Numbered from the stretch's first letter, positions 25,361 to 41,087 are shown. The stretch: 64,000 bases of DNA from an uncultured Candidatus Saccharibacteria bacterium (GCA_964600695.1 CAZRKK010000002.1:5354-69353); one strand, 5' to 3'. Translations and numbers: made by a program. Notes: a model not told the origin generated them from the sequence alone.

Positions 25361-26995
25361 ATGTTTACTAACCCAGAACAAAAAAATAAAAAGATTACCT
25401 TTGCAGTAATAGCGATGGCGGTCGTTGCTTTGGCCGTGGTAACAATATGGCAACCAGGAGAGTTAAGCTTCACGGATAAAACAGATTACAATGCTGAGAC
25501 ACAAAGAGCTCAGGCTGAATTAGCACAATACAAAGCCTTTTTAGCGGAACTTGAACCAAATTACGAAGCTAGTCAACAGTTATTAAAAAAGATTGCTAGT
25601 GCAGATGTAGTTCGTGCAGAAGTTGAGCAGACTTTACAGACAAAGCAGAAAATTGTTATTCCACAAATCGCCAACTCCGAATTAAATATCAGCGATCGTA
25701 AGGATAAAGACTTTGTTTTAAATTATTTGAACACAGTTAGTTCCATGGTGGCTAATTACAAAAATGCAGTTCAACCCGGAACTAATGATTTATTTGTTGA
25801 TAATGCCAACTCTGCTAGTTTGGCTAGGGCTAAGTCGGAAACCGATAGATTTTTAGCAAATTTACGCGGTGTGTCTGTGCCTGCTAGTTTAGTTGAATTA
25901 CACAAAGCTAATATTGTTTCTTTTCAAAAGTACGGACAAATTTTTAATGATGCAGCAAGTTATAGCGAGGGAAGTAACATCGATCCATGGCCAAGTTTCT
26001 ACCAGAGTTACGCTGTGATCGATAATAGATTAGCTGTAGTAAGTAACGAATTAACAAAAGTTGGAAATCAGTTTGCTTTAGCCGAAGAGTTAGAGCGCGC
26101 AACAGGGCCACCATTTATTAAAGTAGCTCAAGCTCAATTAGGTGGTGTGGTAGTAGTTTCTACAGATTTAAAGCGTGATATTTTGGAAGGCATTAAAGAA
26201 GGTTTGGCTAAGTCTTTTGCAAACTTTTCCATGAAGATGCTAGATAAATTAGTCTCTCATATCGAAAAAAGTTTTGCTATTGCTAGTCAACTATATTATT
26301 CCAATGAGCTTGGTAGGTTCTATTCTGTTGAGTATATGAAGAAATTTGTTTCTGATCCACTGGACCAAAGTATTATCCAAAAGTTTTTACCCGAATACTT
26401 TTGTATCGCGCCAAACAAAAAAGATTTGAATAAAATCTTTGTAGCCAAGGCAGCCGAAAATGTGGGTAATGATATAACCATTAATCCGAATGATCCAGAC
26501 TTTGTAGAAAAACTAGCACGGTTGGGAAGTGATGAAAAAAATTATCCACAATGGTGGGAAGGTTACTATCAAGGTTTGGCAGCACAAACAAAGGCAGAGG
26601 CCGAAAGTGCTTCTACTAAAGAAGTTTTGAGCCCTGGAGTAAAAACCGGGAGAGACATAATTACTAACCAAGTTAACAAAACAGTTTCGGCAATTTTCAG
26701 TGTACAAGAAGCGGCAATTTCTGGAGCAATTAACTTAGGAACCAATAACACAGGTAGCCCTGTGAGTCAGTTAGTTTCTGGTGTGGTAGAAGGCTTGGTT
26801 AATAAATTTGTGTTTACCCCAATAAGTGGTGGAGCTTCTAGTGGCGGTGGGATTGGCGTTATCCAAGAAAAAAATGTTTGTCTACAAACTCAAGAGATTA
26901 AGCCTTTGATTCCATTACCTTCATCGGAATACGAAACACCTACAGGAACAACTACAGCTCCAGTTACATCACCACCGTTTGTACCACGTAATTAA
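25361..26995 (+). CDS. membrane-anchored or secreted hypothetical protein
   Basis: 544 aa with N-terminal TM helix (ITFAVIAMAVVALAVVTIW) and a G/S/T/P-rich C-terminus. No family recognised. Confidence 0.55.
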   Translation: MFTNPEQKNKKITFAVIAMAVVALAVVTIWQPGELSFTDKTDYNAETQRAQAELAQYKAFLAELEPNYEASQQLLKKIASADVVRAEVEQTLQTKQKIVIPQIANSELNISDRKDKDFVLNYLNTVSSMVANYKNAVQPGTNDLFVDNANSASLARAKSETDRFLANLRGVSVPASLVELHKANIVSFQKYGQIFNDAASYSEGSNIDPWPSFYQSYAVIDNRLAVVSNELTKVGNQFALAEELERATGPPFIKVAQAQLGGVVVVSTDLKRDILEGIKEGLAKSFANFSMKMLDKLVSHIEKSFAIASQLYYSNELGRFYSVEYMKKFVSDPLDQSIIQKFLPEYFCIAPNKKDLNKIFVAKAAENVGNDITINPNDPDFVEKLARLGSDEKNYPQWWEGYYQGLAAQTKAEAESASTKEVLSPGVKTGRDIITNQVNKTVSAIFSVQEAAISGAINLGTNNTGSPVSQLVSGVVEGLVNKFVFTPISGGASSGGGIGVIQEKNVCLQTQEIKPLIPLPSSEYETPTGTTTAPVTSPPFVPRN

Positions 26996-27017
26996 GGAAT
27001 TAATTTTTAGTTTAACC

Positions 27018-28238
27018 ATGAATGATTTAGAAACTCAACAATCAAATAATAATTCAGAAATCACCGGCCAAAAACTTGGTATCGTTGTGTTGGCTCTGGT
27101 GTTTGGTATTGTCGGAGGGTTATACGGATCATTAGATTTAGCTCGTCGACCATTTTTCCAAAAGATATTTGGTGGAAATAATTCAACCAATTCTGGATAC
27201 ACTCAAAATTTAGTTTTAAACGAACAATCAGCTACAACCGATGTTGTAAAAAAGGCTGGTCCAGCAGTGGTCTCGATAGTAGTTTCCAAAGATATTAGTC
27301 AATCACAGCAATTTAGGTTTGACCCATTTAACTTTTTTGGGCAGATGCCTAACCAAAATTTACCTAAAACACCAAATGTTCAAGAAGTGGGTGCTGGGAG
27401 TGGGTTTTTTGTTAGCAGTGATGGGATGATTATGACTAATAAGCATGTGGTCAGTGATACATCGGCAAAGTATTCTGTAATTACTAACGATGGAAAATCT
27501 TATGATGCCACGGTATTATCTTTAGACCCAACAAATGATATCGCCATTATAAAAATTGATATTAAAGACGCACCATTTTTGGAGTTAGCAGATTCTAGTC
27601 AATTGCAGTTAGGTCAACATGTTATAGCAATCGGAAATTCTTTAGGTCAATATCAAAACACTGTAACTACTGGAATTATCTCCGGTATTGGTAGAAGTAT
27701 TACCGCAGGTGGAGCAGGGGAATTGGAACAGCTAGATGGTGTTATCCAAACTGATGCTGCGATAAACTCTGGTAATTCTGGTGGGCCTTTACTTGATCTT
27801 GCTGGAAGAGTTGTGGGTATCAACACCGCTGTTGACCAACAGGGCCAATCTATTGGTTTTGCTTTACCTGCTAATGATGTAAAAATTGCTCTAGAGAGTT
27901 ATAAGAAAGACGGCAAGATTACTCGACCATATTTGGGAGTTAGATATTTTATGATCACTGATGCCATTGCGAAGACAGAAAAGTTACCTAAAGATTATGG
28001 TGCATTTATAGTCGGTGGTAATAATGCAGACGCCGCTGTTGTACCTGGTAGTCCAGCCGATCAAGCAGGTCTTAAAGAGAATGATATTATTTTAGAAATT
28101 GAAGGAAATAAGTTAACAGATAATTATTCATTATCTAGAGCAATGAAGAAGTATCGACCTAACGATCAGGTGAGTATAAAAATTTTTAGAGATGGTGAAG
28201 AAAAAAATGTAACAGTAACATTAGGCGAAACTAAATGA
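27018..28238 (+). CDS. htrA: HtrA/DegP-family serine protease with PDZ domain
   Basis: Catalytic His (TNKHVV), Asp (NDIAIIKI) and Ser (GNSGGPLLD), with a C-terminal PDZ-like region. I prefer the ATG at 27018 over the TTG at 26979. Confidence 0.88.
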   Translation: MNDLETQQSNNNSEITGQKLGIVVLALVFGIVGGLYGSLDLARRPFFQKIFGGNNSTNSGYTQNLVLNEQSATTDVVKKAGPAVVSIVVSKDISQSQQFRFDPFNFFGQMPNQNLPKTPNVQEVGAGSGFFVSSDGMIMTNKHVVSDTSAKYSVITNDGKSYDATVLSLDPTNDIAIIKIDIKDAPFLELADSSQLQLGQHVIAIGNSLGQYQNTVTTGIISGIGRSITAGGAGELEQLDGVIQTDAAINSGNSGGPLLDLAGRVVGINTAVDQQGQSIGFALPANDVKIALESYKKDGKITRPYLGVRYFMITDAIAKTEKLPKDYGAFIVGGNNADAAVVPGSPADQAGLKENDIILEIEGNKLTDNYSLSRAMKKYRPNDQVSIKIFRDGEEKNVTVTLGETK

Positions 28239-28639
28239 AGATATTAGGAATGGATTATGGTACTAAACGAATTGGCTTAGCTATTTCGGACGAGACTCAT
28301 ACTTTGGCTAGGGAATATGCCATTTGGCCAGCAGTAGAAGTTGATGATGAGTTCTGGAAAAAACTTGCTGAGCTTATAGAAGCCGAAGATATAGAAAAAA
28401 TTGTTCTAGGGATGCCACTGAATATGTCTGGTGAGTCAACTCAAAAATCTGAAGAGGTCCAAAAGTTTAATCAAGTTTTACAAGAGCAAGTAAGTGTACC
28501 AGTGGAATTAGTTGATGAAAGACTCTCGAGTGTGATGGCCGAAAACTTATCTGGGCAAATGTCCGGCCAGCACCATCAAATAGATAGCTTAGCCGCTCAA
28601 ATCTTCTTACAAAATTATTTAAACCAAAATAAAAAATAA
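28235..28639 (+). CDS. ruvX: YqgF/RuvX putative pre-16S rRNA nuclease (Holliday junction resolvase-like)
   Basis: MKILGMDYGTKRIGLAISDE N-terminus. ATGA start/stop overlap with htrA. Confidence 0.88.
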   Translation: MKILGMDYGTKRIGLAISDETHTLAREYAIWPAVEVDDEFWKKLAELIEAEDIEKIVLGMPLNMSGESTQKSEEVQKFNQVLQEQVSVPVELVDERLSSVMAENLSGQMSGQHHQIDSLAAQIFLQNYLNQNKK

Positions 28640-28641
28640 CA

Positions 28642-29664
28642 ATGTCACAATTTAGACGCAATCCAATCAATAAACAGTGGGTATTAATTGCCCCAGGTCG
28701 CGGCAAACGACCTGAGGATTTTCGAACATACAGTGTAAGTTATGGGCTTCCAGAGCTTGACCCGACTTGTATTTTTTGTCCAGGAAATGAAGGAAAAAAC
28801 CCAGACTTGTCAACTGATTCTAGTCGAATTCCAAATAATAAGGATTGGCAATTGCGTGTGATTCCTAATAAGTTCCGGTCGTTGGAGCAGACTAAAGTTT
28901 ATAGTAATAAGGATTTTTATGAATCTCGCTCTGGTTATGGTGATCACGAAGTAATTATTACTCGTAAACATAATGAACCACCGGCTTTGCAATCCGCAGT
29001 GCTTGTTCAACAAAGTTTGAAGTTATTCCAGGATCGGATTAAAGAAATTCAAAAAGACCCAGAGATAAATTATGTTCAAATATTCCACAATCATGGTCGT
29101 GATGCTGGGGCTTCGTTGGTTCATCCTCATTACCAAATTTTAGCGACTCCAATGGTGCCTCCTCATGTACATGAGGAACTTCGTGGTTGTTACCATCATT
29201 ATCAAGAGACTGGTAAGTGTTTGTATTGCGAGATAGTCAAAGAAGAGCTTAAGCATAAAGATCGAATCGTTTATGAAGATGATTATTTTGTAGTCATGTC
29301 TGCTTATGCATCTCGTAGTCCGTTTGAGACTTGGATTTTGCCAAAACGTCATCATTCCAGATTCGAAACAACTTCTGATGTGGAATTACTTCACTTAGCT
29401 CATGTCTTAAAAAAAGTACTCGGTACATTATATGTGAAGCTTGCTGACCCCCCTTTGAATTATTATATTCATACTATGCCTCGCTCGAGTGATAAGCATT
29501 TAGTGCACGAAGAGAAAAGTTACCACTGGCATTTAACAGTATTCCCACGTTTAACTATTTGGGCAGGCTTTGAATATGGAACAGGGATTCCTGTAAACCC
29601 AATGCCTCCAGAAGAGACAGCTAAGTTTTTAAGAGGGGATGCAAATCTTGGGAGGTCTAACTAA
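28642..29664 (+). CDS. galT: galactose-1-phosphate uridylyltransferase-like HIT-family nucleotidyltransferase
   Basis: R.NP....WVLIAP.R..RP, CIFCPGNE and the HPHYQI histidine-triad-type motif. Confidence 0.75.
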   Translation: MSQFRRNPINKQWVLIAPGRGKRPEDFRTYSVSYGLPELDPTCIFCPGNEGKNPDLSTDSSRIPNNKDWQLRVIPNKFRSLEQTKVYSNKDFYESRSGYGDHEVIITRKHNEPPALQSAVLVQQSLKLFQDRIKEIQKDPEINYVQIFHNHGRDAGASLVHPHYQILATPMVPPHVHEELRGCYHHYQETGKCLYCEIVKEELKHKDRIVYEDDYFVVMSAYASRSPFETWILPKRHHSRFETTSDVELLHLAHVLKKVLGTLYVKLADPPLNYYIHTMPRSSDKHLVHEEKSYHWHLTVFPRLTIWAGFEYGTGIPVNPMPPEETAKFLRGDANLGRSN

Positions 29665-30347
29665 TGTCAAAAATAATTATTGCTAACTGGAAGCTGAATC
29701 CTATGACTGCTCGCGAGGCTACAGATTTAGCAAGAAAAATTGATGTAGTTTCTAAATATGAAGTTGTGTTATGTCCACCAACTCCATTTTTGGGAGTGAT
29801 TGAATATATGCACAAAGGAGCTCAAGATGTCAGCTCTCAAATTAAAGGACCCTACACTGGTCAAATTTCGAGTGCCAACCTAGCAAGCCTTGGAGTGACT
29901 TATTGCATAGTTGGTCATAGTGAAAGAAGAGCTTTAGGCGAAACCGACACACAAATCAACGAAAAAATTCATGCTTTGCTAGATTATAAAATTACTCCAA
30001 TTTTGTGTGTTGGCTATGGCACAGCAGTGAATCAGGACGAACTAGAAGTTACAGATGTATTAGCTTCTCAACTCCGACAAGATTTAGATGAAGTTGATGT
30101 TAAAAAAGTTATTGTCGCTTACGAACCAGTATGGGCAATCGGTTCTGGAAGGCCAGCTACACCAGATCACGCCGAGCAAATTGCTTTGTATATCAGTACA
30201 AAGTTTGGAGTACGGTCTGTGATATATGGTGGTAGTGTAAATAGTACTAATAGCGCTAACTTTTTAAGTCAGCATAATGTTGGCGGTCTATTGGTTGGTG
30301 GAGCTTCATTGCTTGCCGACGATTTTAATAAAATTATTCAGTCATAA
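29664..30347 (+). CDS. tpiA: triosephosphate isomerase
   Basis: IIANWKLN, VGHSERR, AYEPVWAIGSG, IYGGSV motifs. Confidence 0.92.
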   Translation: MSKIIIANWKLNPMTAREATDLARKIDVVSKYEVVLCPPTPFLGVIEYMHKGAQDVSSQIKGPYTGQISSANLASLGVTYCIVGHSERRALGETDTQINEKIHALLDYKITPILCVGYGTAVNQDELEVTDVLASQLRQDLDEVDVKKVIVAYEPVWAIGSGRPATPDHAEQIALYISTKFGVRSVIYGGSVNSTNSANFLSQHNVGGLLVGGASLLADDFNKIIQS

Positions 30348-30370
30348 CGCGGCTCAGCCGCAATACAAAA

Positions 30371-30841
30371 ATGATTTACATTGGAGCCGATCACGGCGGA
30401 TACAAATTAAAGGAACATATTAAAAAGTTTTTAGTTAAAGAGTGGAACCGAGAGTCTGGTGGCCAACAGCTCGAACTAAAGGATCTTGGAGCAAGCAAGT
30501 TTAAAGATGGGGATGATTACCCTGATTATGCTGCCAGAGTAGCTAAGCAGGTTTCCGCAAATCCTTTAGCTAATTTAGGAATCTTGATTTGTCGCAGTGG
30601 GCAAGGTGTATGCATAGTGGCTAATAAGTTTAAAGGGGTTCGAGCAGTATTAGTATGGAACGAACTCGAAGCCAAAATGAGTAGAAATGACGATATGAGC
30701 AACGTGTTATGTTTGCCAAGTGATTATATAGATACAAAGATGGCAGAAAAGATTGTTAAGGCGTGGCTCGAGACGCCATTTTCGACGGAGCAGAGGCATA
30801 TGCGACGTGTGAAGAAGATCAGTGCTTTAGAAAATAATTAG
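30371..30841 (+). CDS. rpiB: ribose-5-phosphate isomerase B
   Basis: IYIGADHGGYKLKEHI and ICRSGQGVCIVANK (RpiB/LacAB family). Confidence 0.87.
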   Translation: MIYIGADHGGYKLKEHIKKFLVKEWNRESGGQQLELKDLGASKFKDGDDYPDYAARVAKQVSANPLANLGILICRSGQGVCIVANKFKGVRAVLVWNELEAKMSRNDDMSNVLCLPSDYIDTKMAEKIVKAWLETPFSTEQRHMRRVKKISALENN

Positions 30842-30850
30842 AAAACATAA

Positions 30851-31489
30851 ATGCTTATTCCGGCAATATTAGAAAATAATAAAAAGAAATATTTAGAAAA
30901 TCTAAAAGCAGTTTTAGCATTGAAGAATATCAAGTCTATACAAATAGATTTTGCCGATGGGGAATTTGTGGCCACTAAAACTTTACCAATCGCCGAGATA
31001 GAACTTCCTGCAAGGTCTAAAATTTTGTTCGAAGCACATTTGATGGTTAAAGAACCCAAGGATTTTGTTTTGTATCAAAAGGCTGGGTTTAAAAAAATCA
31101 TCGTTCATTACGAAGCTTTTAAAAGTGAACTTGATTTAGAAGCAGCTATAGAAGAAATAAAAAAGTTAAAAATGATTCCTGCAATAGCCATTTCTCCAAC
31201 TAGTGAAATTTCTGTAATTCGTTATCATACTGATACAATCAAGGACTTCACTTTGTTGGCTGTGGTTCCGGGTAGGCAAGGACAAAAAATGTTACCAGAA
31301 ACTTTTGATCGACTTCGAGAATTAAGAGATCATGCCCCAGGTGCAAATATCGAGATAGATGGCGGAGTTGATGGTAAAAATATTGCTTCTTTAATAGACG
31401 CCGGCGCAACAGATTGCGTAGCAGGTTCAAGTTTACTAAGAGGTGATATTAAAGAGAATTATAAAGTGCTTATGGAGGCTTTAAAATAA
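30851..31489 (+). CDS. rpe: ribulose-phosphate 3-epimerase (divergent)
   Basis: 212 aa with IDFADGEFV, HLMV, VHYEA, VVPGRQGQK and IEIDGGV, aligned with the Rpe barrel pattern. Confidence 0.72.
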   Translation: MLIPAILENNKKKYLENLKAVLALKNIKSIQIDFADGEFVATKTLPIAEIELPARSKILFEAHLMVKEPKDFVLYQKAGFKKIIVHYEAFKSELDLEAAIEEIKKLKMIPAIAISPTSEISVIRYHTDTIKDFTLLAVVPGRQGQKMLPETFDRLRELRDHAPGANIEIDGGVDGKNIASLIDAGATDCVAGSSLLRGDIKENYKVLMEALK

Positions 31490-32340
31490 TGTCAAAACTT
31501 TCATCAACAGATTTACAACTAACTGCTAATAAAATTCGAGAAGATATTATCAGTATGTTAGTGGAGGCGGGGAGTGGTCACAGCGCCGGACCTTTAGGTA
31601 TGGCTGATGTTTTCACTGCTTTGTATTTTGAAGTCATGAATATTAATCCTCATGACCCTAATTGGGAAGAACGTGATTGGTTAATTTTATCGTGTGGCCA
31701 TATTTGTCCAGTGTTGTACGCAACAATGTCTGAACGTGGCTATTTCCCAGCGTCAGAATTAAAATCGCTTCGCAAGCTTGGTACTCGTTTGCAAGGACAT
31801 CCTCATAACTTATCTTTACCTGGCATAGAAACAACTAGCGGACCCTTAGCACAGGGTGCTTCTCAGGCTGTGGGAGTAGCTTTAGCAATGCGGATGAGTG
31901 GTAAAAAGAATCGTGTTTATTTAGTGATGTCGGATGGTGAGCAAAATGAAGGTCAGATTTGGGAAGCTGTTATGTTGGCTGGCAAAGAAAAACTTCATAA
32001 TCTTACTGCCATTATAGACCGCAATAATATTCAAATTGATGGTTATACAGAAGATGTTATGCCTTTGGACAATTTGAAAGCAAAGTACGAAGCCTTTAAT
32101 TGGCACGTTATAGAAGTTGATGGACACAATATTCAGGCAGTGATTAATGCCTATCGTGAAGCAGAGGCGGTGTATGAAAAACCAACAGTCATTATTGCGC
32201 ATACCATTCCAGGGAAGGGCGTGGACTTTATGGAGGGTAAGTTTGAATGGCATGGTAAACCACCAAAAGCTGACGAAGCCAAATTAGCTCTGCAAGAGCT
32301 ACGTACATTGCAAGGAAAAATTAAAAGTGAACATGAATAA
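31489..32340 (+). CDS. tkt: transketolase, N-terminal (TPP-binding) subunit
   Basis: GSGHSAGPLGMADV, GHP and SDGEQNEGQIWEA motifs. 283 aa, the split-type subunit. Confidence 0.9.
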   Translation: MSKLSSTDLQLTANKIREDIISMLVEAGSGHSAGPLGMADVFTALYFEVMNINPHDPNWEERDWLILSCGHICPVLYATMSERGYFPASELKSLRKLGTRLQGHPHNLSLPGIETTSGPLAQGASQAVGVALAMRMSGKKNRVYLVMSDGEQNEGQIWEAVMLAGKEKLHNLTAIIDRNNIQIDGYTEDVMPLDNLKAKYEAFNWHVIEVDGHNIQAVINAYREAEAVYEKPTVIIAHTIPGKGVDFMEGKFEWHGKPPKADEAKLALQELRTLQGKIKSEHE

Positions 32341-32367
32341 TTTTATTAATATAATTAACCAAAAATC

Positions 32368-34125
32368 ATGACAATTCTAATAGGGCTTATTGTAATAATA
32401 TTTTTAATTACTTTAAGCAGAAGAGTTTCTAAAATTGAAGATGCTCTTAAAATCAATCCTGCATTAGGTCGGGCTGTACAACAGCCAGTACCACAGCCAC
32501 AAACCGCACAACCATTACAAGTTGCTCAAACAGCAAAGGTTGCCCAAAAAGCTAGTGCTACTCAACCGGTTGTTGTTGAAACTAATCATCTTGATTCAAA
32601 ATCTTTTGTTAATGCCTTGCCAAAAATTGGGGTCATTGCTCTAGTATTTGGTTTAGCATTTTTCCTAAAATATGCGATTGATCAAGGATGGATTAGTGAA
32701 TCTTTGCGTTTGGGTTTGGGTGCAGTGGTTGGTGGATTGTTATTGGTTCTATTTTATTTATGGAAAGAAAAATATGCTAAGTATGCCTTAGTCTTGGCTG
32801 GTGGAGGATTAGCTATTTGGTATTTAACAATTTTTGCAGCAGTAGAAATGTATGCCATGTTGAGCATGAATGGTGGATTAATCATTTTGTCGATAGTTAC
32901 TATAATCGGTTTATTGCTGGCATATAAAACAAAGTCTCCGAGTTTATCAGCTTTGGCTTGGGGAGGCGCATTTTTATCTCCAATCATATTGTCGTTTAAT
33001 TCCAGTTCTTATAGTTTAATGTTGATTTATATCAGCATCGTCGTGTTGGGATTACTAACATCTATTGTTTATACGAAGTCTTACAAATTATTTGCACTTA
33101 TAATTGCTGGAACTGCCGTTAACTTATTATTCGGGTTGTTCGCAGGATTGTTCACAGAAGAATATTATATTAGAACTCTAATCTTTTTAATAATCCATCT
33201 ATGTGCTAATACGTTTGTAATTACTAATCTTATTCGATCCGATAAAGCAGAGAATAAAGAAATAAATCAAACAGAGTTCGGGCTTTTATTAGTTTTGATA
33301 TTTGCAATTTTTGTGTTGCCAACAGCGTTGATTGCATACTTTAAGTTTAATGATTACTCTACACTTATCATGACTGCTTTGGCTGTTTGGACTTTCCTAA
33401 TTTATGCATTTATTGATCGATTAGAGCTCACTAAGCTTAATTATTTGTTGTCTGGGTTTGGCACATCTCTTTTAGTAATTAGTGTGATTTGGCAGTTTGG
33501 TGATAATTCTCAAGTAGTTATGTTTTATATTCTGGGTTTGGTGGGGATTATCGTTGGTTATATTCAAAAACGAGCGGAACTTCGAGCGTGGGGAGTTTCT
33601 ACAGTTATGGTTGGTCTAGTCTCAGCTTGTTTGGTTAGTTATGGTTCTGTTCCACAGTTGATTGTCACTCAAAAATTTGGTCTCGAAATGCTCGGGTTGG
33701 TAGCATTGGGTGTCGCATATATTTTCTTTAAGGAAGATCAACTCTCAGAATTCGAACATGATATTCATTTAGCAATTCAGTATCTCATAGCTGGATTTGC
33801 ATGGTTCTTTATTTCTTGGGACTTGTATAACTACTATTCTGCTTTCGACCAAGTTAATCAAAGAAATCTATCCTTAAGTTTGTGGTGGTTGGTTTATGCA
33901 ACACTCTTACTTGGAGCTTCTGTTACTCACGTTCTTAAACCTTTAAGAAAAGTAGGTTTGTTGCTATTTGGTTTAGTAATTATCAAAGTGTTTCTTTATG
34001 ACGTGCAGAGTCTAGATATGGTTTATAGAATAATTTCATTTATCAGTTTAGGTGTAATTCTGTTGGTGGTCTCATTTATCTATCAACACAACAAAGAAAA
34101 AATTATCAAATATATTGAATCTTAA
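32368..34125 (+). CDS. large polytopic membrane protein (DUF2339-like architecture)
   Basis: 585 aa: N-terminal TM helix, a P/Q-rich linker (QQPVPQPQTAQPLQVAQTAKVAQ), then more than 15 hydrophobic helices. Sits between the two transketolase subunit genes. Confidence 0.6.
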   Translation: MTILIGLIVIIFLITLSRRVSKIEDALKINPALGRAVQQPVPQPQTAQPLQVAQTAKVAQKASATQPVVVETNHLDSKSFVNALPKIGVIALVFGLAFFLKYAIDQGWISESLRLGLGAVVGGLLLVLFYLWKEKYAKYALVLAGGGLAIWYLTIFAAVEMYAMLSMNGGLIILSIVTIIGLLLAYKTKSPSLSALAWGGAFLSPIILSFNSSSYSLMLIYISIVVLGLLTSIVYTKSYKLFALIIAGTAVNLLFGLFAGLFTEEYYIRTLIFLIIHLCANTFVITNLIRSDKAENKEINQTEFGLLLVLIFAIFVLPTALIAYFKFNDYSTLIMTALAVWTFLIYAFIDRLELTKLNYLLSGFGTSLLVISVIWQFGDNSQVVMFYILGLVGIIVGYIQKRAELRAWGVSTVMVGLVSACLVSYGSVPQLIVTQKFGLEMLGLVALGVAYIFFKEDQLSEFEHDIHLAIQYLIAGFAWFFISWDLYNYYSAFDQVNQRNLSLSLWWLVYATLLLGASVTHVLKPLRKVGLLLFGLVIIKVFLYDVQSLDMVYRIISFISLGVILLVVSFIYQHNKEKIIKYIES

Positions 34126-35135
34126 TGTTTAACCCAACGCAAAAACTTAATCCCAAACTTAGCGTGATGAGCGCAAGCGATCTGGACAACCTAATAGAGC
34201 AAAAACCGACTCGGGATGGTTTTGGCGAAGCTTTGTTGCGTCTAGGTGAGCAAGACGAACGAATTGTTGTTCTAACCGGCGACTTAAAAGAAAGTACGCG
34301 CGTGCAAGCTTTTGCAGATAAATTTCCTGATAGATTTGTAGAATGTGGGGTTGCAGAACAAAATATGATGGGTGTGGCGGCAGGACTAGCGCTTGCAGGA
34401 AAAATCCCTTTTGCTGCTAGTTACGCTACTTTTAGCCCTGGACGTAATTGGGATCAATTTCGAGTCTCGGTTTGTTATAGCAAGGCTAATGTGAAGGTAA
34501 TAGGTGCTCATACAGGGGTTTCTGTGGGCCCTGACGGTGCAACTCATCAAGCTCTAGAAGATATAGCTATTACCCGTGTGCTTCCAAATTTAACTGTACT
34601 GCAACCAATCGACGCCATCGAAGCCTCAAAAGCAGTGATCGCGATGAGTGATATAGATGGGCCAGTGTATATTCGATTAACTAGAGAAAAAAGTCCTGTT
34701 ATTACAACGCCGGATTCTCCATTCGAAATTGGGAAAGCAAATATATTAAGAGATGGTACGGATGTAGCGATAATAGGGTGTGGCCCAATACTGTATAATG
34801 CTATTAAGGCCGCAGTAGAGTTAGAGAAACAAAATATTAGTGTTTTGATAATCAACAACCATACTATCAAGCCAATCGATAAAAATACTATTCTGTGGGC
34901 AGCTAAGTTAACTAAGGCGGTTGTGACAGTAGAAGAGCACCAAATAGATGGTGGCTTGGGAAGCGCAGTGGCAGAAGTCTTAGCCAGAAATTACCCTGTG
35001 CCTGTCGAGATGGTGGGGATGCCAAATACTTTTGGTGAAAGTGGAACCCCAGAAGAATTATTCGAAAAATATGGCATGGGTGTACAGTCTATAGTTAAGT
35101 CAATAAAGAAAGCGATATCTAGAAAACAAAGTTAA
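34125..35135 (+). CDS. tkt: transketolase, C-terminal (pyrimidine-binding) subunit
   Basis: TRDGFGEAL, ECGVAEQNMMGVAAGLA and GATHQALEDIA motifs. TAATG overlap with the upstream membrane gene. Confidence 0.9.
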   Translation: MFNPTQKLNPKLSVMSASDLDNLIEQKPTRDGFGEALLRLGEQDERIVVLTGDLKESTRVQAFADKFPDRFVECGVAEQNMMGVAAGLALAGKIPFAASYATFSPGRNWDQFRVSVCYSKANVKVIGAHTGVSVGPDGATHQALEDIAITRVLPNLTVLQPIDAIEASKAVIAMSDIDGPVYIRLTREKSPVITTPDSPFEIGKANILRDGTDVAIIGCGPILYNAIKAAVELEKQNISVLIINNHTIKPIDKNTILWAAKLTKAVVTVEEHQIDGGLGSAVAEVLARNYPVPVEMVGMPNTFGESGTPEELFEKYGMGVQSIVKSIKKAISRKQS

Positions 35136-35155
35136 AGAAATTATTAAAATAAATT

Positions 35156-36181
35156 ATGCCGAAAACCAAATTTGATTTAATCGCCATTGGTGATCCTACA
35201 ATAGATACTTTTTTGTTGGTCGATGATATTGAAGTAAAAAAAATTAACGGACAACTAAAAGCTATTATAAGCTGGGGTGATAAACTGCCAGTGCAAAAAT
35301 TTTATCGTACAGTTGCTGGGAATGCTGCTAATAATGCTGTTGGAAGTAGTCGATTGGGTCTTAAAACGGCTTTCTATACAGTTCTCGCTCATGATGCAGG
35401 TGGAAGAGAGATTATTCACAAAATGCAAAAAGAAAAAGTTGTTACAGATTATATTGTCATCGATGACAAGCACCCAACTAACGCATCTACAGTACTAAGC
35501 CATAACGGCGAACGGACTATCTTTGTATATCATGAGCATCGAAAATATGTTTTGCCAAAATTGGCACCAGCAAAATGGGTTTACTTAACAAGCTTGGGTG
35601 ATGGCTTCGAAAAAATTTATAAAGATTTGGCTAAGTATTTAGATAAGAATAAAGTCGAGCTAGCTTTTAATCCGGGAACATTTCAACTTCGTAAAGGCCC
35701 TAAGTTTAATAAATTAATGCTCGAAAGAACTTCTGTATTGTCATTAAATAAAGAGGAAGCGCAAAGCTGGGTAGGGAATAGTGAAGATATCGAAGTCTTG
35801 GCGAAAAAATTACAGAAACTTGGGCCAAAGTGTGTAGTAATTACAGATGGTCGTAAAGGTGCTTATAGTTATAGTAACGAAGGTTATTTTTATATCACAG
35901 AATTTCCTGGACCACGCATAGATGCAACAGGGGCAGGTGATAGTTTTACCACTGCGTATGTCGCAGCTTTGGCAAGTGGGCAATCTCATAAGGAGGCCTT
36001 ACGGTGGGGTCCTGTGAATGCTGCTAGTGTCGTTAATAAAATTGGTCCACAGGAAGGCCTGCTCACTAAGAAGGAACTAGCAGGAAAACTTTCTAGAAGT
36101 AAAAGTTATCAGGCCACAGAAATGAAAGACGAAAAAATTAAATCTAAGATTGCTGCTATGGTAGGAAAGATGAAGGATTAA
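35156..36181 (+). CDS. PfkB-family carbohydrate kinase
   Basis: Ribokinase-like fold signature DATGAGDSF near the C-terminus, plus GG dipeptide region. Substrate cannot be assigned from sequence alone. Confidence 0.8.
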   Translation: MPKTKFDLIAIGDPTIDTFLLVDDIEVKKINGQLKAIISWGDKLPVQKFYRTVAGNAANNAVGSSRLGLKTAFYTVLAHDAGGREIIHKMQKEKVVTDYIVIDDKHPTNASTVLSHNGERTIFVYHEHRKYVLPKLAPAKWVYLTSLGDGFEKIYKDLAKYLDKNKVELAFNPGTFQLRKGPKFNKLMLERTSVLSLNKEEAQSWVGNSEDIEVLAKKLQKLGPKCVVITDGRKGAYSYSNEGYFYITEFPGPRIDATGAGDSFTTAYVAALASGQSHKEALRWGPVNAASVVNKIGPQEGLLTKKELAGKLSRSKSYQATEMKDEKIKSKIAAMVGKMKD

Positions 36182-36182
36182 A

Positions 36183-37049
36183 ATGTTAGTTCATATCAAA
36201 GAACTTTTCAACTCAGAAGTTAGGGGAAAGTTTGCTTACCCAGCCTTCAATACTATGAATCTCGAAATAACTCGAGGTATTATTGAAGCTGCCGAGGAAT
36301 TAAATACTCCAATTATTATAGAGACAAGTGAAGGAGCCATTAAGTATGCTGGGCTTGAGCCTATGTTCGAAATAATTGCTAGCCTTGCAATTAAAGCCAA
36401 GATTCCAGTAGCTTTGCATATGGATCATGGTAAAGATATGGAACAGTTGCAGAGAGGTATTGAACTCGGATATTCTTCAGTGATGATTGATCATTCTTCT
36501 TTACCTATTAATGAGAATATAAAGAACACCAAAGCAATGGTTGAATTTGCACATAAGGAAGGCGCTTGGGTTCAGGGTGAAGTGGGCCGTATCCGTGGAA
36601 GTGAAGACTGGGTGTCTGTATCTGAGAGTGAAAGTTTGCTGACTGAGCCCCAAGAAGCTTTAAAATTTTGGCAGGACACCAATGTTGATAGTTTAGCTTG
36701 TTCTTTTGGTACAATTCACGGTATTATTAAGATGAGTGGAAAGGCTGAAGCTAATGTAGACATCGACCGCATTAAACAGGTGTCTGAACTAGTTCCAGTT
36801 CCTTTAGTGTTACATGGTGCAAGCGGTGTACCTGATGATGTGATCGCCAATGCAATTAAAGCCGGCATCAGTATTATTAATATTGATACGGAGTTAAGGA
36901 TAGGGTTCACTAAAAATTTAAGACAGGCGTTATTAGAGCATCCTGATGAAGTTGACCCAAGAAAATATTTAACACCGGCAATTGAAGGTGTTAAGGATGC
37001 AGCAAAAAAGAAGTTATTAGCATTTAAAACAATTAATCAACTTAATTAA
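36183..37049 (+). CDS. fba: class II fructose-bisphosphate aldolase
   Basis: YPAFNT.N.E, HMDHG, LVLHGASG motifs. Confidence 0.9.
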   Translation: MLVHIKELFNSEVRGKFAYPAFNTMNLEITRGIIEAAEELNTPIIIETSEGAIKYAGLEPMFEIIASLAIKAKIPVALHMDHGKDMEQLQRGIELGYSSVMIDHSSLPINENIKNTKAMVEFAHKEGAWVQGEVGRIRGSEDWVSVSESESLLTEPQEALKFWQDTNVDSLACSFGTIHGIIKMSGKAEANVDIDRIKQVSELVPVPLVLHGASGVPDDVIANAIKAGISIINIDTELRIGFTKNLRQALLEHPDEVDPRKYLTPAIEGVKDAAKKKLLAFKTINQLN

Positions 37050-37050
37050 T

Positions 37051-37284
37051 ATGGGAATGGCTGGTTCCGGTTTATCGGACAAAAATGTAAGGTTACGTTT
37101 TTTAATCTATATTTTCATGGGGGTAATTGCTCTCGGTTCTGTGATGTATTGGAAAGTTAAACTTTTTGAGAATTCAGAATATGTAGAACTGACTTTCGGT
37201 ACTCATAAAGAAAAAGATCCATCACTCTTACAATCAGAAAATTATCAAATCGAAACATTCGAGACTTCACCAAGTGTAAAGTAG
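37051..37284 (+). CDS. small single-TM protein, hypothetical
   Basis: 77-aa ORF with an FLIYIFMGVIALGSVMYW helix, starting 1 nt after the fba stop. Confidence 0.4.
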   Translation: MGMAGSGLSDKNVRLRFLIYIFMGVIALGSVMYWKVKLFENSEYVELTFGTHKEKDPSLLQSENYQIETFETSPSVK

Positions 37285-37334
37285 TTATACGTAGCAACGC
37301 AAATAGACCGTAGTATTGAAATAAAAATAATAAA

Positions 37335-38366
37335 ATGCAAAATAAAATTAAAATTGGTATCAATGGATTTGGTCGTATAGGGCGACAGGCTTTTAAAATT
37401 GCTTTAGATAAACCAGAAATCGAGATTGTGGCGATAAATGATTTAACTAGCCCAGCAAGTTTGGCTCATCTTTTAAAATACGATAGTAACTATGGGAAGT
37501 TTGATCATACTATAGAGTCAAACGAAACTCATTTAATTGTAAATGGTAAAAGTTATTTAGTGACTGCAGAAAAAGATCCCGCTAACTTGCCTTGGGGCAA
37601 GCTTGGTGTAGATGTAGTTATCGAAAGTACAGGTAGATTTACAAGTGGAGAAAAGGCTAGTGGTCATTTAGCTGCGGGCGCGAAGAGGGTAATTATTTCT
37701 GCTCCAGCTAAAGATGAAGGTATTACTAAGACATATGTTTTAGGGGTAAACGAAGATGCTTATACCGACGAGGCTATCATTAGCAATGCCTCTTGCACCA
37801 CAAACTGTATTGCTCCTGTAGCGGCTGTTATGCATGCAAAGTTTGGAATCGAGAAAGCTATGATGACTACCATTCATAGTTACACAGCCGAACAAAACTT
37901 AGTAGATGGTCCTCCTCCAGGAGGGCACTCCGAAGATTTTCGTAGAGCACGAGCAGCAGCGGTAAATATTGTACCAACTACCACTGGGGCAGCTATTTCT
38001 GCCACAGAAACAATTCCAGAATTAAAAGGTTTGTTTGATGGTATGGCTATTCGCGTGCCTACTCCTGTTGGAAGTTTAACCGATTTTACCATGTTGTTAA
38101 AAAAAGATGTTACGGTCGAGGAAGTTAATCAAGCGTTTATAGATGCAACTACTCATCCTTTATACAAAGGCGTGTTAGTAGTAACAGATGAACAATTGGT
38201 TTCTTCTGATATCGTTGGTAACCCTGCTTCGGCTATTGTAGATTTATCTTTAACTAAAGTTACTGCCGGTAATTTTGTAAAAGTAATTGCTTGGTATGAT
38301 AATGAATTTGGTTATTCCAATAGACTTGTCGAACAAGTAATTTTAGTTGGCCAGAGTATTAAGTAG
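37335..38366 (+). CDS. gap: glyceraldehyde-3-phosphate dehydrogenase
   Basis: INGFGRIGR and SNASCTTNC catalytic motif, WYDNEFGYS. Confidence 0.96.
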   Translation: MQNKIKIGINGFGRIGRQAFKIALDKPEIEIVAINDLTSPASLAHLLKYDSNYGKFDHTIESNETHLIVNGKSYLVTAEKDPANLPWGKLGVDVVIESTGRFTSGEKASGHLAAGAKRVIISAPAKDEGITKTYVLGVNEDAYTDEAIISNASCTTNCIAPVAAVMHAKFGIEKAMMTTIHSYTAEQNLVDGPPPGGHSEDFRRARAAAVNIVPTTTGAAISATETIPELKGLFDGMAIRVPTPVGSLTDFTMLLKKDVTVEEVNQAFIDATTHPLYKGVLVVTDEQLVSSDIVGNPASAIVDLSLTKVTAGNFVKVIAWYDNEFGYSNRLVEQVILVGQSIK

Positions 38367-38375
38367 GTAAAGTGT

Positions 38376-38403
38376 AAAAAAAAAGAGCAGAAATTTCTGC
38401 TCT
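38376..38403 (-). terminator. rho-independent terminator oriented for the minus strand
   Basis: agagcag (38384-38390) / ctgctct (38397-38403). The A-run at 38376-38383 becomes the U-tract on the minus strand. There is no T-run on the plus-strand side. Confidence 0.7.
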
Positions 38404-38422
38404 GGATGAGGTGTAATTTGTT

Positions 38423-38509
38423 TTAGTTAGGGAGAAAGCTTATCCCTACGGCAAGAATTACAATCCCAAATAAGTAAGCGATGATTAAAATTTTAATATC
38501 TTTTCTCAT
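38423..38509 (-). CDS. 28-aa hydrophobic micro-protein (MRKDIKILIIAYLFGIVILAVGISFLPN)
   Basis: Not in the ORF track (too short). On the minus strand GGAGGA lies 3 nt before the ATG (ctggaggacaaATG), and the correctly oriented terminator starts 20 nt after the stop. Confidence 0.45.
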   Translation of the reverse strand: MRKDIKILIIAYLFGIVILAVGISFLPN

Positions 38510-38574
38510 TTGTCCTCCAGTCGATCGATGTAATAATTGATGTAGCACTAGTATTAAATCATAAATTATCAATT

Positions 38575-39822
38575 TTGTCAATAGAAAGCTTAACAAATAT
38601 TCTTAAAAAAGATGCAAAATCTCTCAAAAATAAGAGAGTTTTGTTAAGATTAGATTTAAACGAAGAGATATCCACAACTGGTAAGTTGCTAGATAATTTT
38701 AGGATTCAGTCGGCAATACCTACAATAAAAATTTTGCGTTCTGCTGGTGCAAAAATCATTATCGTCTCTCATTTGGGTCGGCCAGAAGGGAAGTGGGGTA
38801 CTAGCTTGTCCTTAAAACCAATCGCTAATTGTTTAGCAGAGATGTTGGATTATAAGTACGTAGAGACTGATGGTAAGTTACCGACATATTCAATTCCACA
38901 TCTCGTACTTTTTAAAAATGATATTACCAAGCCTGAGTCTTTAGAATTTCTAAATGATCAGTCAGCTCAGGATATTGTGATGTTAGAAAATATTCGCTTT
39001 TACGAAGGCGAAGATCTAAACTCAGATATTTTTTCGGAACAACTTTCTAAGACAGCTGATTTATTTGTTAATGATGCGTTTAGTGTTTGTCATAGAGCAG
39101 CTGCTTCTGTAGTTGGGGTTACTAAATACCTACCTAGTAGTGCAGGGCCCTTACTAGAAAAAGAAATTAAAGCACTAGAGTTCATGCTTTCTAATAAAGT
39201 TGCAAAACCATTTGTTCTTATGATGGGCGGAATTAAGATTGCCGACAAAGAACAAACTTTGCGTAACCTTGGTAAGCGAGCCGACAAGATTTTACTTGCC
39301 GGTGGTTTGGCTAATTTGTTTTTAAAAGCTCAGGGTTATGATGTTGGTGTTGATGTTGCAGATAAAAAAAGCCTGGCTTTAGCCAAAGAGTTATTACTAA
39401 ATTTTAAATCAAAACTAGTATTACCTTCTGATGTTGCAGTTAAAACTATCAAAGCCCCAAATCAGGCACAAGCTAAACAGTTATCAGAAATTGTGGCTAC
39501 AGATAAACTTTATGATATTGGTCCGCAATCAATTTTGGCTTTTAGCAAGATATTAAAAACTGCTGGAACAATTTGTTGGAATGGCCCACTAGGGTATTTT
39601 GAGGATAAGTCTTTTCGGGCGGGGACAATGGCTATCTCCAATGTTATAGGTGGTTTAGGTAAACGCAAAGCTTACGTATTGGTAGGTGGTGGTGAAACCG
39701 TTGCCTCTGTTAGGTTGGCTGGCCAGTTAGAACACATTGACCATGTGTCTACAGGTGGTGGTGCTATGCTAGAATTTTTAGCCGGTGCTAAACTTCCTGG
39801 AATTGAAGCCTTAAGAAAATAA
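38575..39822 (+). CDS. pgk: phosphoglycerate kinase
   Basis: RLDLN, VSHLGRP, FYEGE, GGGD/GGGAMLEFL-type motifs. Apparent TTG start. Confidence 0.93.
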   Translation: MSIESLTNILKKDAKSLKNKRVLLRLDLNEEISTTGKLLDNFRIQSAIPTIKILRSAGAKIIIVSHLGRPEGKWGTSLSLKPIANCLAEMLDYKYVETDGKLPTYSIPHLVLFKNDITKPESLEFLNDQSAQDIVMLENIRFYEGEDLNSDIFSEQLSKTADLFVNDAFSVCHRAAASVVGVTKYLPSSAGPLLEKEIKALEFMLSNKVAKPFVLMMGGIKIADKEQTLRNLGKRADKILLAGGLANLFLKAQGYDVGVDVADKKSLALAKELLLNFKSKLVLPSDVAVKTIKAPNQAQAKQLSEIVATDKLYDIGPQSILAFSKILKTAGTICWNGPLGYFEDKSFRAGTMAISNVIGGLGKRKAYVLVGGGETVASVRLAGQLEHIDHVSTGGGAMLEFLAGAKLPGIEALRK

Positions 39823-39833
39823 TTTTTCTCTAT

Positions 39834-41087
39834 ATGATTTCCAAAATTAGCAAAATTACTGCTCGCCAAATTTTAGATAGCAGAGGCAATCCAACCTTAG
39901 AGGTTAGTGTGTATGCCGGTAAATCTTTTGCTGTGGCGTCTGTACCAAGTGGAGCCTCGACAGGAAGTCACGAGGCAGTAGAATTACGCGATGGCGGCAA
40001 AGCTTGGCGCGGTTTAGGGGTGCAAAAAGCAGTAAAAAACGTCGAGAAAATCATCACTCCCTTATTAAAAAATATTTCGGTTTTTGACCAAATGGAAATT
40101 GATAGACTAATGTTGGCTAAAGATAATACACCCGACAAGCGACGCTTAGGAGCCAATGCAATATTAGGAGTATCGTTGGCGGTATCACGCTTAGCTGCGC
40201 AATTAAAAAATCAAACTTTATATAATTATTTAGCTAAGACCTATCAGTTTAAAAAACCTTCCTCTCTACCAACACCTTTACTAAATGTTTTAAATGGAGG
40301 ACTTCATGCTGATTCTGGCACAGACGTGCAGGAGTTCTTCTTTATTCCAAAGCGGGGAAAATTTGCCCAAAAGTTAGAAATTGGTAGCCAAGCTATATCT
40401 GCATTAAAACAACTAATAAAAAAGAAAAAACTTTCTGTTGGTTTAGGTGACGAAGGTGGATTTGCTCCTAAGGTTCATTCTAACGAGAAGGCTTTACGTT
40501 TATTACTGGCTGCTGTGCATAAAGCTAAGTTTCGTTTAGGGAAAGATATCGCCTTAGGTATCGATGCTGCTGCCAGTGAATTTTTTGATGCCGAGAGAGA
40601 AGTCTATAATTTTAGTTCTGATAACAAACATTACAAACCTGCAAGTGTTTATAAGTTATATGCAAGTTGGGTAAAACGATTTGGTTTAGAAATAATCGAA
40701 GACGGATGCGCCGAGGATGATTTTGCGGGTTGGCAAAAGTTAACTTCAGCTTTAGGGGATAATATAACTCTGGTAGGTGATGATTTGTTTGTAACAAACC
40801 CTGCACGACTACAGGCTGGAATAATTTCTGGAATAGCTAACAGTGTACTAATTAAACCAAACCAAATTGGATCGGTGTCGGAAACAATGGCAACGATTAA
40901 GTTGGCCAAAAAGTTTAATTATAAAGTTGTCATTTCACATCGAAGCGGGGAAACGGCCGATGATTTTATTGCCGATTTAGCAGTTGCGGTTGGCGCGGAT
41001 TATATCAAGGCAGGTAGCTTAGCTCGAGGGGAGCGTTTAGCAAAGTATAATCGATTATTAAAAATTGCCGACGAACTTAAGCAGTAG
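39834..41087 (+). CDS. eno: enolase
   Basis: ITARQILDSRGNPTLEV, SHRSGETAD, IKAGSLARGERLAKYN. Confidence 0.96.
   Translation: MISKISKITARQILDSRGNPTLEVSVYAGKSFAVASVPSGASTGSHEAVELRDGGKAWRGLGVQKAVKNVEKIITPLLKNISVFDQMEIDRLMLAKDNTPDKRRLGANAILGVSLAVSRLAAQLKNQTLYNYLAKTYQFKKPSSLPTPLLNVLNGGLHADSGTDVQEFFFIPKRGKFAQKLEIGSQAISALKQLIKKKKLSVGLGDEGGFAPKVHSNEKALRLLLAAVHKAKFRLGKDIALGIDAAASEFFDAEREVYNFSSDNKHYKPASVYKLYASWVKRFGLEIIEDGCAEDDFAGWQKLTSALGDNITLVGDDLFVTNPARLQAGIISGIANSVLIKPNQIGSVSETMATIKLAKKFNYKVVISHRSGETADDFIADLAVAVGADYIKAGSLARGERLAKYNRLLKIADELKQ

Follow-up and report, generated by a model that had tools for sequence, protein, structure and literature searches.

Organisation of the split transketolase locus

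The window analysed here, a 64,000-nt stretch from an uncultured Candidatus Saccharibacteria bacterium (GCA_964600695.1, CAZRKK010000002.1:5354-69353), carries a split transketolase whose two subunit genes, tktN and tktC, are separated by a gene encoding a polytopic membrane protein of the DUF2339/Arc3A family. We examined the identity of these genes and the conservation of their order in related genomes, and we propose that the membrane protein gene is probably an old, tolerated insertion co-expressed with central metabolism. The three genes belong to a co-directional central-carbon gene array on the + strand (26979-41087), delineated from the open reading frame (ORF) list and Pfam matches, with the order HtrA-RuvX-GalT-TIM-RpiB-Rpe-TktN-DUF2339-TktC-PfkB-FBA-77aa-GAPDH-PGK-enolase. 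Both sources agree with the original prediction on the succession and boundaries of tktN, the 585-aa membrane protein gene and tktC.

The tktN gene (31489-32340, +) encodes the thiamine pyrophosphate-binding (PP-domain) subunit of the enzyme, a protein of 283 aa matching PF00456 at 1.7e-60 over profile positions 5-273 of 334. It is followed by an AT-rich spacer of 27 nt with no obvious Shine-Dalgarno sequence (32341-32367, +), then by the DUF2339 gene (32368-34125, +), which encodes a protein of 585 aa with 19 predicted transmembrane (TM) helices. The stop codon of the latter overlaps the start codon of tktC within a TAATG (34123-34127, +), which had been announced from the first inspection and is present in the sequence (34120-34127, tcTTAATG). 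Finally, tktC (34125-35135, +) encodes the Pyr plus C-terminal-domain subunit, with 336 aa and matches to PF02779 at 6.4e-42 and PF02780 at 2.3e-32.

The two transketolase proteins display the domain layout of split-gene transketolases, with the PP domain alone on TktN, the Pyr and C-terminal domains on TktC, and no ~70-aa linker. The NCBIfam transketolase profile NF004559 is divided between them (positions 15-286 for TktN and 315-625 for TktC), and their nearest solved structures in the PDB search are the chains of the Carboxydothermus split transketolase (6yak N chain, E 7.7e-81, for TktN; 6yaj/6yak C chain, E 1.2e-96, for TktC). TktN is 65-88% identical among relatives, and the conservation of both subunits across the lineage (64-88%) suggests that they form an active heterotetramer. 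The start of tktC at M1 is backed by an N-terminal M-x-N...KLNPK motif kept in 16 relatives; an alternative start at Met15 was considered unlikely, given the conservation of this segment.

Upstream, the ribulose-phosphate 3-epimerase gene (rpe, 30851-31489, +; PF00834 at 1.4e-30) has a stop codon that overlaps the tktN start by 1 nt, and a PfkB-family sugar kinase gene (35156-36181, +; PF00294 at 1.2e-39) is the downstream neighbour of tktC. Over the 64-kb window, 58 of the 64 listed ORFs of at least 120 aa are located on the + strand and 6 on the - strand, and a scan of the same window against Rfam returned no family at its gathering score.

A short DUF2339 protein with nineteen predicted transmembrane helices

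In a hidden Markov model (HMM) search, the membrane protein matched PF10101 (DUF2339) with an E-value of 3.7e-58 and 198.3 bits, for a gathering cut-off of 33.6, bearing out the family label that had been tentatively given to it. The match comprises two stretches, the best of which aligns residues 82-478 with profile positions 3-391 of 659. For the topology, we relied on hydropathy, the positive-inside rule and an AlphaFold2 model (pLDDT 77.8, pTM 0.66) for which 17 homologues were used. It begins with a single N-terminal TM helix, continues with a disordered, Pro-, Gln- and Ala-rich linker (residues 30-76) and ends with 18 TM helices, the predicted total of 19 agreeing with the initial estimate of more than 15. 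The N-terminus is predicted to face outwards, and both the linker and the C-terminus to be cytoplasmic. According to the model, the protein consists of successive TM helical hairpins whose connecting loops span 1-13 residues, and hardly any of its surface, the linker apart, lies outside the membrane.

No soluble or catalytic domain was found in this protein, either in Pfam and NCBIfam scans or in the predicted topology. Likewise, a Foldseek search of the model against the PDB returned nothing at E <= 0.001 and no enzyme or transporter-like fold (MFS, APC/LeuT, ABC, RND and others). Across the 17 homologues, 55 columns are invariant, with R19 and E24 invariant in the juxtamembrane segment. No match to DUF3999 (PF13163, Arc3B) was detected anywhere in the window, nor in any tkt-context locus.

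The length of the protein varies within its clade. Members of 722 and ~845 aa differ only by 2 or 3 tandem copies of a four-helix module of ~130 aa, present as a single copy in the window protein (around residues 430-550), and the clade's DUF2339 proteins lengthen by tandem duplication of this four-TM module. Its recurrent motifs (KFGL..., LWW..Y. and KVFLYD-like) were seen when comparing window positions 32368-34125 with related loci L023 (7989-10157) and L026 (7956-10493). A foreign origin of the gene, which a GC dip over DUF2339 might have indicated, was rejected: the dip occurs in codon positions 1 and 2, and the GC content at third positions (GC3, 0.276) falls within the operon range (0.244-0.401).

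Conservation of the gene order in related genomes

Related loci (designated by L numbers) were surveyed with one genome per species, by mapping the operon proteins of the window onto them with tblastn, and a scan of Joint Genome Institute (JGI) metagenomes was added. The original prediction had hinged on the arrangement recurring beyond a single genome, and it does so: the order tktN-DUF2339-tktC was found in the same HtrA-to-enolase array in about 30 related loci, with DUF2339 identities across the tkt-embedded loci down to 28%. Homologues that cover the full length of this protein extend down to about 26-30% identity. For instance, the loci carrying homologues at 53%, 42% and 36% identity (L001, L003 and L004, respectively) all display TktN-DUF2339-TktC in the same array, as do L007, L009-L012, L014, L016-L021, L023, L025 and L033, and the truncated contigs L008, L015 and L024 agree with this order. 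The same holds for L089, from a complete genome of 943 kb, in which DUF2339 and tktC also overlap by 1 nt. The JGI metagenomes added ten loci with this order (L093, L095, L096, L098-L102, L109 and L123) and no new context. Within the literature searched, this conserved order appears to be undescribed.

Judging from the record titles and source names of the related loci, the lineage corresponds to Candidatus Doudnabacteria or Patescibacteria, and several of its metagenome-assembled genomes bear the generic label "uncultured Candidatus Saccharibacteria". An exact look-up of the window protein retrieved no record, and its cluster yielded no names. More distant DUF2339 genes are followed by DUF3999 in Planctomycetota, Acidobacteriota, deltaproteobacteria and other lineages in the Candidate Phyla Radiation (CPR) such as Moraniibacteria (L006, L027, L029, L037, L043, L075 and others). 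Within the array, HtrA and RuvX are as syntenic as DUF2339; conserved position alone is therefore no proof of a functional link.

Loci carrying one partner without the other

Relatives devoid of DUF2339 were retrieved through a TktC search, as the closest TktC proteins lacking a matching DUF2339 hit. In L088, whose operon proteins are the nearest to those of the window (TktC 81% and GAPDH 93% identical), the same array is present, tktN and tktC overlap directly (GAACATGAATAATG) and no DUF2339 gene occurs at the locus. In L090-L092, tktN and tktC are separated by a gap of 181 nt, again with no DUF2339 at the locus, and the same TktC was found in 23 contigs. No scar of a DUF2339 deletion was detectable in the L090 gap or at the L088 junction. 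The 181-nt spacer of L090 harbours a long inverted repeat (GGTTCAGGCGATTATTATT ... AATAATAATCGCCTGAAC, L090:6822-6910) with arms of ~19 nt and no detectable DUF2339 remnant. Furthermore, no feature of the TktN C-terminus or of the TktC N-terminus was found that separates DUF2339-bearing from DUF2339-free genomes.

Conversely, three loci (L022, L026 and L078) display the order Rpe-DUF2339-PfkB, with PfkB directly after DUF2339 and no tkt gene in the stretch examined. In two other pairs of loci, belonging to one sub-lineage (L005/L013 and L086/L094), DUF2339 is placed directly after 6-phosphogluconate dehydrogenase (6PGD), with glucose-6-phosphate dehydrogenase (G6PD) upstream in the same array in L005/L013; L005 and L086 likewise have no tkt genes at the locus. 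In the DUF2339 tree, both the Rpe-PfkB group and the 6PGD group nest inside the tkt-embedded clade, and these contexts are therefore derived states. The Rpe-DUF2339-PfkB arrangement is the same locus after deletion and constitutes no independent association. At the locus level, co-occurrence of transketolase and DUF2339 was thus not obligate in either direction.

At these 6PGD-linked loci, DUF2339 is immediately followed by a gene (L005:7770-8459, L086:4608-5213) homologous to CPR-C4, a vasohibin-like CPR cysteine protease (PDB 7ob6/7pjo, E 4.1e-56 for 7ob6). This 229-aa gene, with a weak PF02780 match below the cut-off (E 5.7e-4), had been considered as a possible tktC remnant, which was rejected: it has no similarity to the TktC of the window and is a CPR-C4 homologue, and the PF02780 match is spurious.

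Junctions, transcription signals and insertions in the array

Overlaps of 1 or 4 nt occur at 4 of the 14 junctions of the array (HtrA/RuvX, GalT/TIM, Rpe/TktN and DUF2339/TktC), the Rpe/TktN junction being a TAATG as well. The DUF2339/TktC overlap therefore represents the normal style of this genome and is not special. Among relatives, L003 and L089 have the 1-nt overlap too, the two genes overlap by 4 or 11 nt in L012, L017, L023 and L024, and the others have gaps of 5-822 nt. These DUF2339-TktC distances (-11 to +822 nt) are approximate, as the most upstream candidate start codons were used.

A sigma-70-like match (TGAACA-16-TATAAT, 32328-32355) ends 12 nt before the ATG of DUF2339. Promoter-like matches in the region are at chance level (45 found vs 43.9 expected), and this one provides no evidence of a promoter. 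In the same scan, no terminator-like site was found on the + strand between 26500 and 38600, which covers the array up to GAPDH; the promoter and terminator counts equal chance, so that the scan does not delimit transcription units. The largest intergenic gap of the array (208 nt, 38367-38574) separates GAPDH from PGK, which starts with TTG, and contains a palindromic hairpin (AGAGCAGAAATTTCTGCTCT, 38384-38403) just past the GAPDH stop codon. This gap and its hairpin may mark an internal transcript boundary.

The DUF2339-TktC distance varies because unrelated genes occupy the junctions in relatives, and the central-carbon array as a whole is a general insertion hotspot. Small proteins with two TM helices are encoded between DUF2339 and TktC in L001, L007 and L009, and the TktN/DUF2339 junction of L019 (1916-2634) hosts a PIN-like toxin-antitoxin pair, identified by its sequence, together with a small Cys-rich protein. 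At various junctions, we found fragments resembling 23S-rRNA-intervening-sequence proteins (L011 and L016, on the same basis), secreted proteins (L015 and L023), type IV pilin-like genes with a GFTLIELLVV motif (L010:10735-11238, L020:5171-5731) and, at the Rpe/TktN junction, a conserved polytopic membrane protein of 284 aa (L011:5565-6419, L012:5510-6361, L016:5494-6351). The gaps of 1.0-1.6 kb between rpe and tktN in some loci were considered as possible sites for 6PGD or transaldolase, a possibility that was rejected, as these gaps are occupied by unrelated membrane, pilin-like or other genes.

Two further features of the array concern its downstream half. Between FBA and GAPDH lies an ORF of 77 aa (37051-37284, +) for which a single TM helix is predicted and which has no Pfam match; with 29-55% identity and the same position in most related loci, it constitutes a second membrane-protein gene in the glycolytic array. 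In addition, L001, L004, L007, L023 and L025 lack the class II FBA gene (window 36183-37049) at its position, flanked by pfkB and the small TM gene, and keep the rest of the array.

These observations bear on a reading that we regard as possible, and entertain only tentatively, in which expression logic alone accounts for the position of DUF2339. The site would offer constitutive high expression from a housekeeping operon promoter in a genome with few promoters, and might also adjust the ratio of TktN to TktC or, by co-translational insertion of the upstream protein, bring the translation of tktC to the membrane. The strong + strand bias of the listed ORFs, the frequency of overlapping junctions, the lack of + strand terminator-like sites up to GAPDH in the scan, and the many other membrane or secreted genes inserted in the same array in relatives are all consistent with such a logic. 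However, the overlap with tktC is not conserved, since gaps reach 822 nt and ORFs are intercalated in L001, L007, L009, L014, L015 and L025, and the promoter-like motif directly upstream of DUF2339, though no better than chance, would run against dependence on an upstream promoter.

Divergence, phylogeny and recombination

DUF2339 diverges three to four times faster than the array enzymes. Its identity between the window and L089 is 44%, for 81% over the operon proteins, and the corresponding values are 63% and 92% between L003 and L009, and 39% and 78% between L010 and L003. Seven operon proteins were concatenated (1939 columns), and the neighbour-joining tree built from them recovered the topology (L090,(L089,(L088,window))) with bootstrap values of 98-100%. 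This clade is nested among DUF2339-bearing lineages, and the deepest branches of the tree, L014 and L018, also carry DUF2339. The presence of the gene in the deepest branches, along with the nested position of the window clade, therefore indicates that the insertion is ancestral and that at least two losses, or a loss and a re-gain, came after it.

The DUF2339 tree conflicts with this topology. Here, L001/L007 are joined to the window in 75% of the bootstraps and lie inside the window clade in 100% of them, whereas the operon tree unites them with L033 (92%) and places them in the window clade in 0%. Moreover, the window-L001 pair is the largest positive outlier among distant pairs when DUF2339 identity is compared with operon identity. 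At the 3' end of tktN (window 32130-32340, the ~70 C-terminal residues), two indel states are distributed patchily on the operon tree: the short C-terminal state of the window is common to L090, L001, L007 and L017, the long state being that of L088 and L089, its nearest relatives. The last ~70 TktN residues of the window are likewise closer to those of L090, L001 and L007 than to those of L088 and L089. The patchy distribution of these states next to DUF2339 suggests a recombination breakpoint at the locus. On the tktC side, no mosaic signal was seen.

From these patterns, DUF2339 could be viewed as a fast-evolving envelope or defence gene forming an exchangeable cassette, whose alleles would be swapped, lost and re-acquired between lineages by homologous recombination, with the highly conserved tktN and tktC as homology arms. 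Beyond the displaced L001/L007 and the window-L001 outlier, the shared TktN C-terminal indel state and the alternation of presence and absence in very close relatives (present in the window and L089, absent in L088 and L090) would fit such exchanges. We nevertheless consider this scenario, which has some support, rather unlikely as a whole. The trees are neighbour-joining only, with a moderate support of 75% for the key sister grouping, and tree distortion can arise from rapid divergence by itself; homoplasy could account for the TktN indel, no mosaic signal was seen on the tktC side, and GC3 bears no sign of a recent foreign origin. Such exchange would explain the persistence of the gene at this site, and it is compatible with a tolerated insertion, which it refines.

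Interpretation and biological significance

Considering all these results, we interpret the locus as most probably reflecting an old, tolerated insertion of an Arc3A-family membrane-homeostasis gene between tktN and tktC, co-expressed with central metabolism and not a partner of transketolase. The genes tktN and tktC need not be adjacent, and the conserved tktN-DUF2339-tktC order behaves like a neutral gene-order feature. The original prediction had left a choice between a neutral insertion and a functional linkage by tethering or sugar-phosphate channelling at the membrane. The former agrees with the evidence, as an ancient and conserved insertion lost in L088/L090 and kept without tkt in L022, L026 and L078. 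The latter gained no support: the membrane protein has no soluble domain, the Tkt termini bear no DUF2339-specific feature, the DUF2339 tree is in conflict with that of the operon, and the protein diverges fast.

Under this interpretation, an ancestor of the Doudnabacteria-type Patescibacteria lineage would have received an Arc3A-family gene between tktN and tktC, and this gene would since have been carried along in a very long, tightly packed and co-directional central-carbon array. The three genes are probably borne by one mRNA, on which DUF2339 translation would start after the 27-nt spacer, and the TAATG may let terminating ribosomes reinitiate on tktC, hence a putative translational coupling. 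TktN and TktC would come together as the usual alpha2-beta2 enzyme in the cytoplasm, as the separately made Carboxydothermus subunits do. The DUF2339 protein would act in the membrane, on lysophospholipid handling or phospholipase damage, as proposed for Arc3A. By analogy, such lipid handling would be plausible for a CPR cell that scavenges its lipids: an enrichment in lysolipids is reported for CPR bacteria, which are thought to lack the capacity to produce membrane lipids of their own (PMC7242380).

Several points weigh against this interpretation. DUF2339 has kept its position over a deep lineage even though its sequence changes fast, and its absence in L088 and L090 is established for the tkt locus only. 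The adjacency to 6PGD (L005/L013, L086/L094), with G6PD upstream in L005/L013, forms a second pentose-phosphate neighbourhood that could hint at a metabolic link, as could the maintenance of DUF2339 between rpe and pfkB after the loss of tkt. In addition, the lipid function is extrapolated from one proteobacterial homologue with ~35 TM segments and an Arc3B partner that is absent in the clade of the window, and we infer the co-transcription and translational coupling of tktN-DUF2339-tktC from their arrangement in the sequence.

Alternatively, DUF2339 would be functionally coupled to pentose-phosphate metabolism, by anchoring or organising transketolase or other enzymes of the pathway at the membrane, or by importing a sugar, pentose or nucleoside to feed it, with selection keeping the gene in its position. 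Conservation in about 30 loci down to 28% identity, the two pentose-phosphate contexts just mentioned and the close stop/start overlap at tktC that the window shares with L003 and L089 could be seen in this light, and the juxtamembrane segment with its invariant R19 and E24, together with the predicted cytoplasmic linker, could in principle bind a partner. This coupling nonetheless appears highly improbable to us. In L088 and L090, tktN and tktC are intact and highly conserved although the locus has no DUF2339, nothing in the Tkt termini follows its presence, and DUF2339 evolves three to four times faster than the enzymes, along a conflicting tree. The protein has no inter-helix loop longer than 13 residues and no transporter-like fold, and its number of TM modules varies within the clade. 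Distant members of the family pair with DUF3999 and not with sugar genes. The Rpe-PfkB context is the same locus after deletion and not an independent one, and HtrA, RuvX and the 77-aa TM protein are equally syntenic in an array that has received many unrelated insertions. A membrane platform or uptake device working with transketolase or 6PGD-type enzymes, which would explain why the gene remained among pentose-phosphate genes, or came to lie beside them, in three contexts, seems very improbable as well.

If the tolerated insertion of a passenger gene is the right explanation, deep conservation of gene order, even with a stop/start overlap, would be no proof of partnership in the packed, co-directional arrays of CPR bacteria. 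The link with the Arc3A family also gives a likely role, in defence against phospholipases and lysophospholipids, to an otherwise unannotated and widespread membrane protein of Doudnabacteria. The short form with 19 TM helices, and its relatives differing by one or two tandem modules, are possible minimal models for an Arc3A-type mechanism. Should an interaction between DUF2339 and pentose-phosphate enzymes exist, it would represent a novel type of membrane-associated central metabolism; the evidence gathered here speaks against such an interaction.

Comparison with known systems

The split transketolase itself is ordinary. As in the Carboxydothermus enzyme (6yak/6yaj), the PP domain is carried by one chain, with the Pyr plus C-terminal domains on the other, and the separately expressed subunits of Carboxydothermus hydrogenoformans reconstitute an active enzyme (James et al. 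2020, PMC7661550). The locus differs from this system in that its two genes are parted by a membrane-protein gene of 1.76 kb. Split tkt genes are adjacent in Sulfolobus and dispersed in M. jannaschii, with no conserved intervening gene described (PMC7661550); the view that they are normally adjacent, from which the original prediction had started, thus holds for some organisms but leaves out the dispersed genes also known.

Regarding the membrane protein, the sole functional study of the DUF2339 family found in our literature search concerns Arc3A (PA5114) of P. aeruginosa, a DUF2339 protein with ~35 TM segments that is the most critical factor against the Tle3 phospholipase and prevents the accumulation of lysophospholipids (Ting et al., eLife 2022, PMC8926400). 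Its homologues, defined by PF10101, are found in most bacterial phyla with a variable number of TM segments; divergent ones complement the mutant, and the family works without a species-specific partner (PMC8926400). The authors suggested sequestration of lysophospholipids or interference with the phospholipase as its mechanism, and reported its partner Arc3B, a PF13163 (DUF3999) protein encoded by a neighbouring gene, in Gram-negative phyla only (PMC8926400). The window protein shares with Arc3A the PF10101 family, a dense succession of TM helices and the lack of a recognisable catalytic or soluble domain. It differs by its shorter length (585 aa and 19 TM helices vs ~35), and by its N-terminal TM helix followed by a Pro/Gln/Ala-rich linker. 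Furthermore, its gene has no adjacent Arc3B/DUF3999, unlike distant homologues, some of them in other CPR, and is located inside a central-carbon operon, whereas Arc3A belongs to a stress-induced defence cluster.

Another CPR representative is known from a closed Gracilibacteria genome, which encodes a DUF2339 protein of 990 aa with 32 TM helices (PMC6851277). Like the window protein, it is TM-rich and composed of DUF2339 only, but it is much longer, and no link with transketolase or the pentose-phosphate pathway was reported for it. Among these systems, the protein described here is a new, short and Arc3B-less subfamily of the known DUF2339 family.

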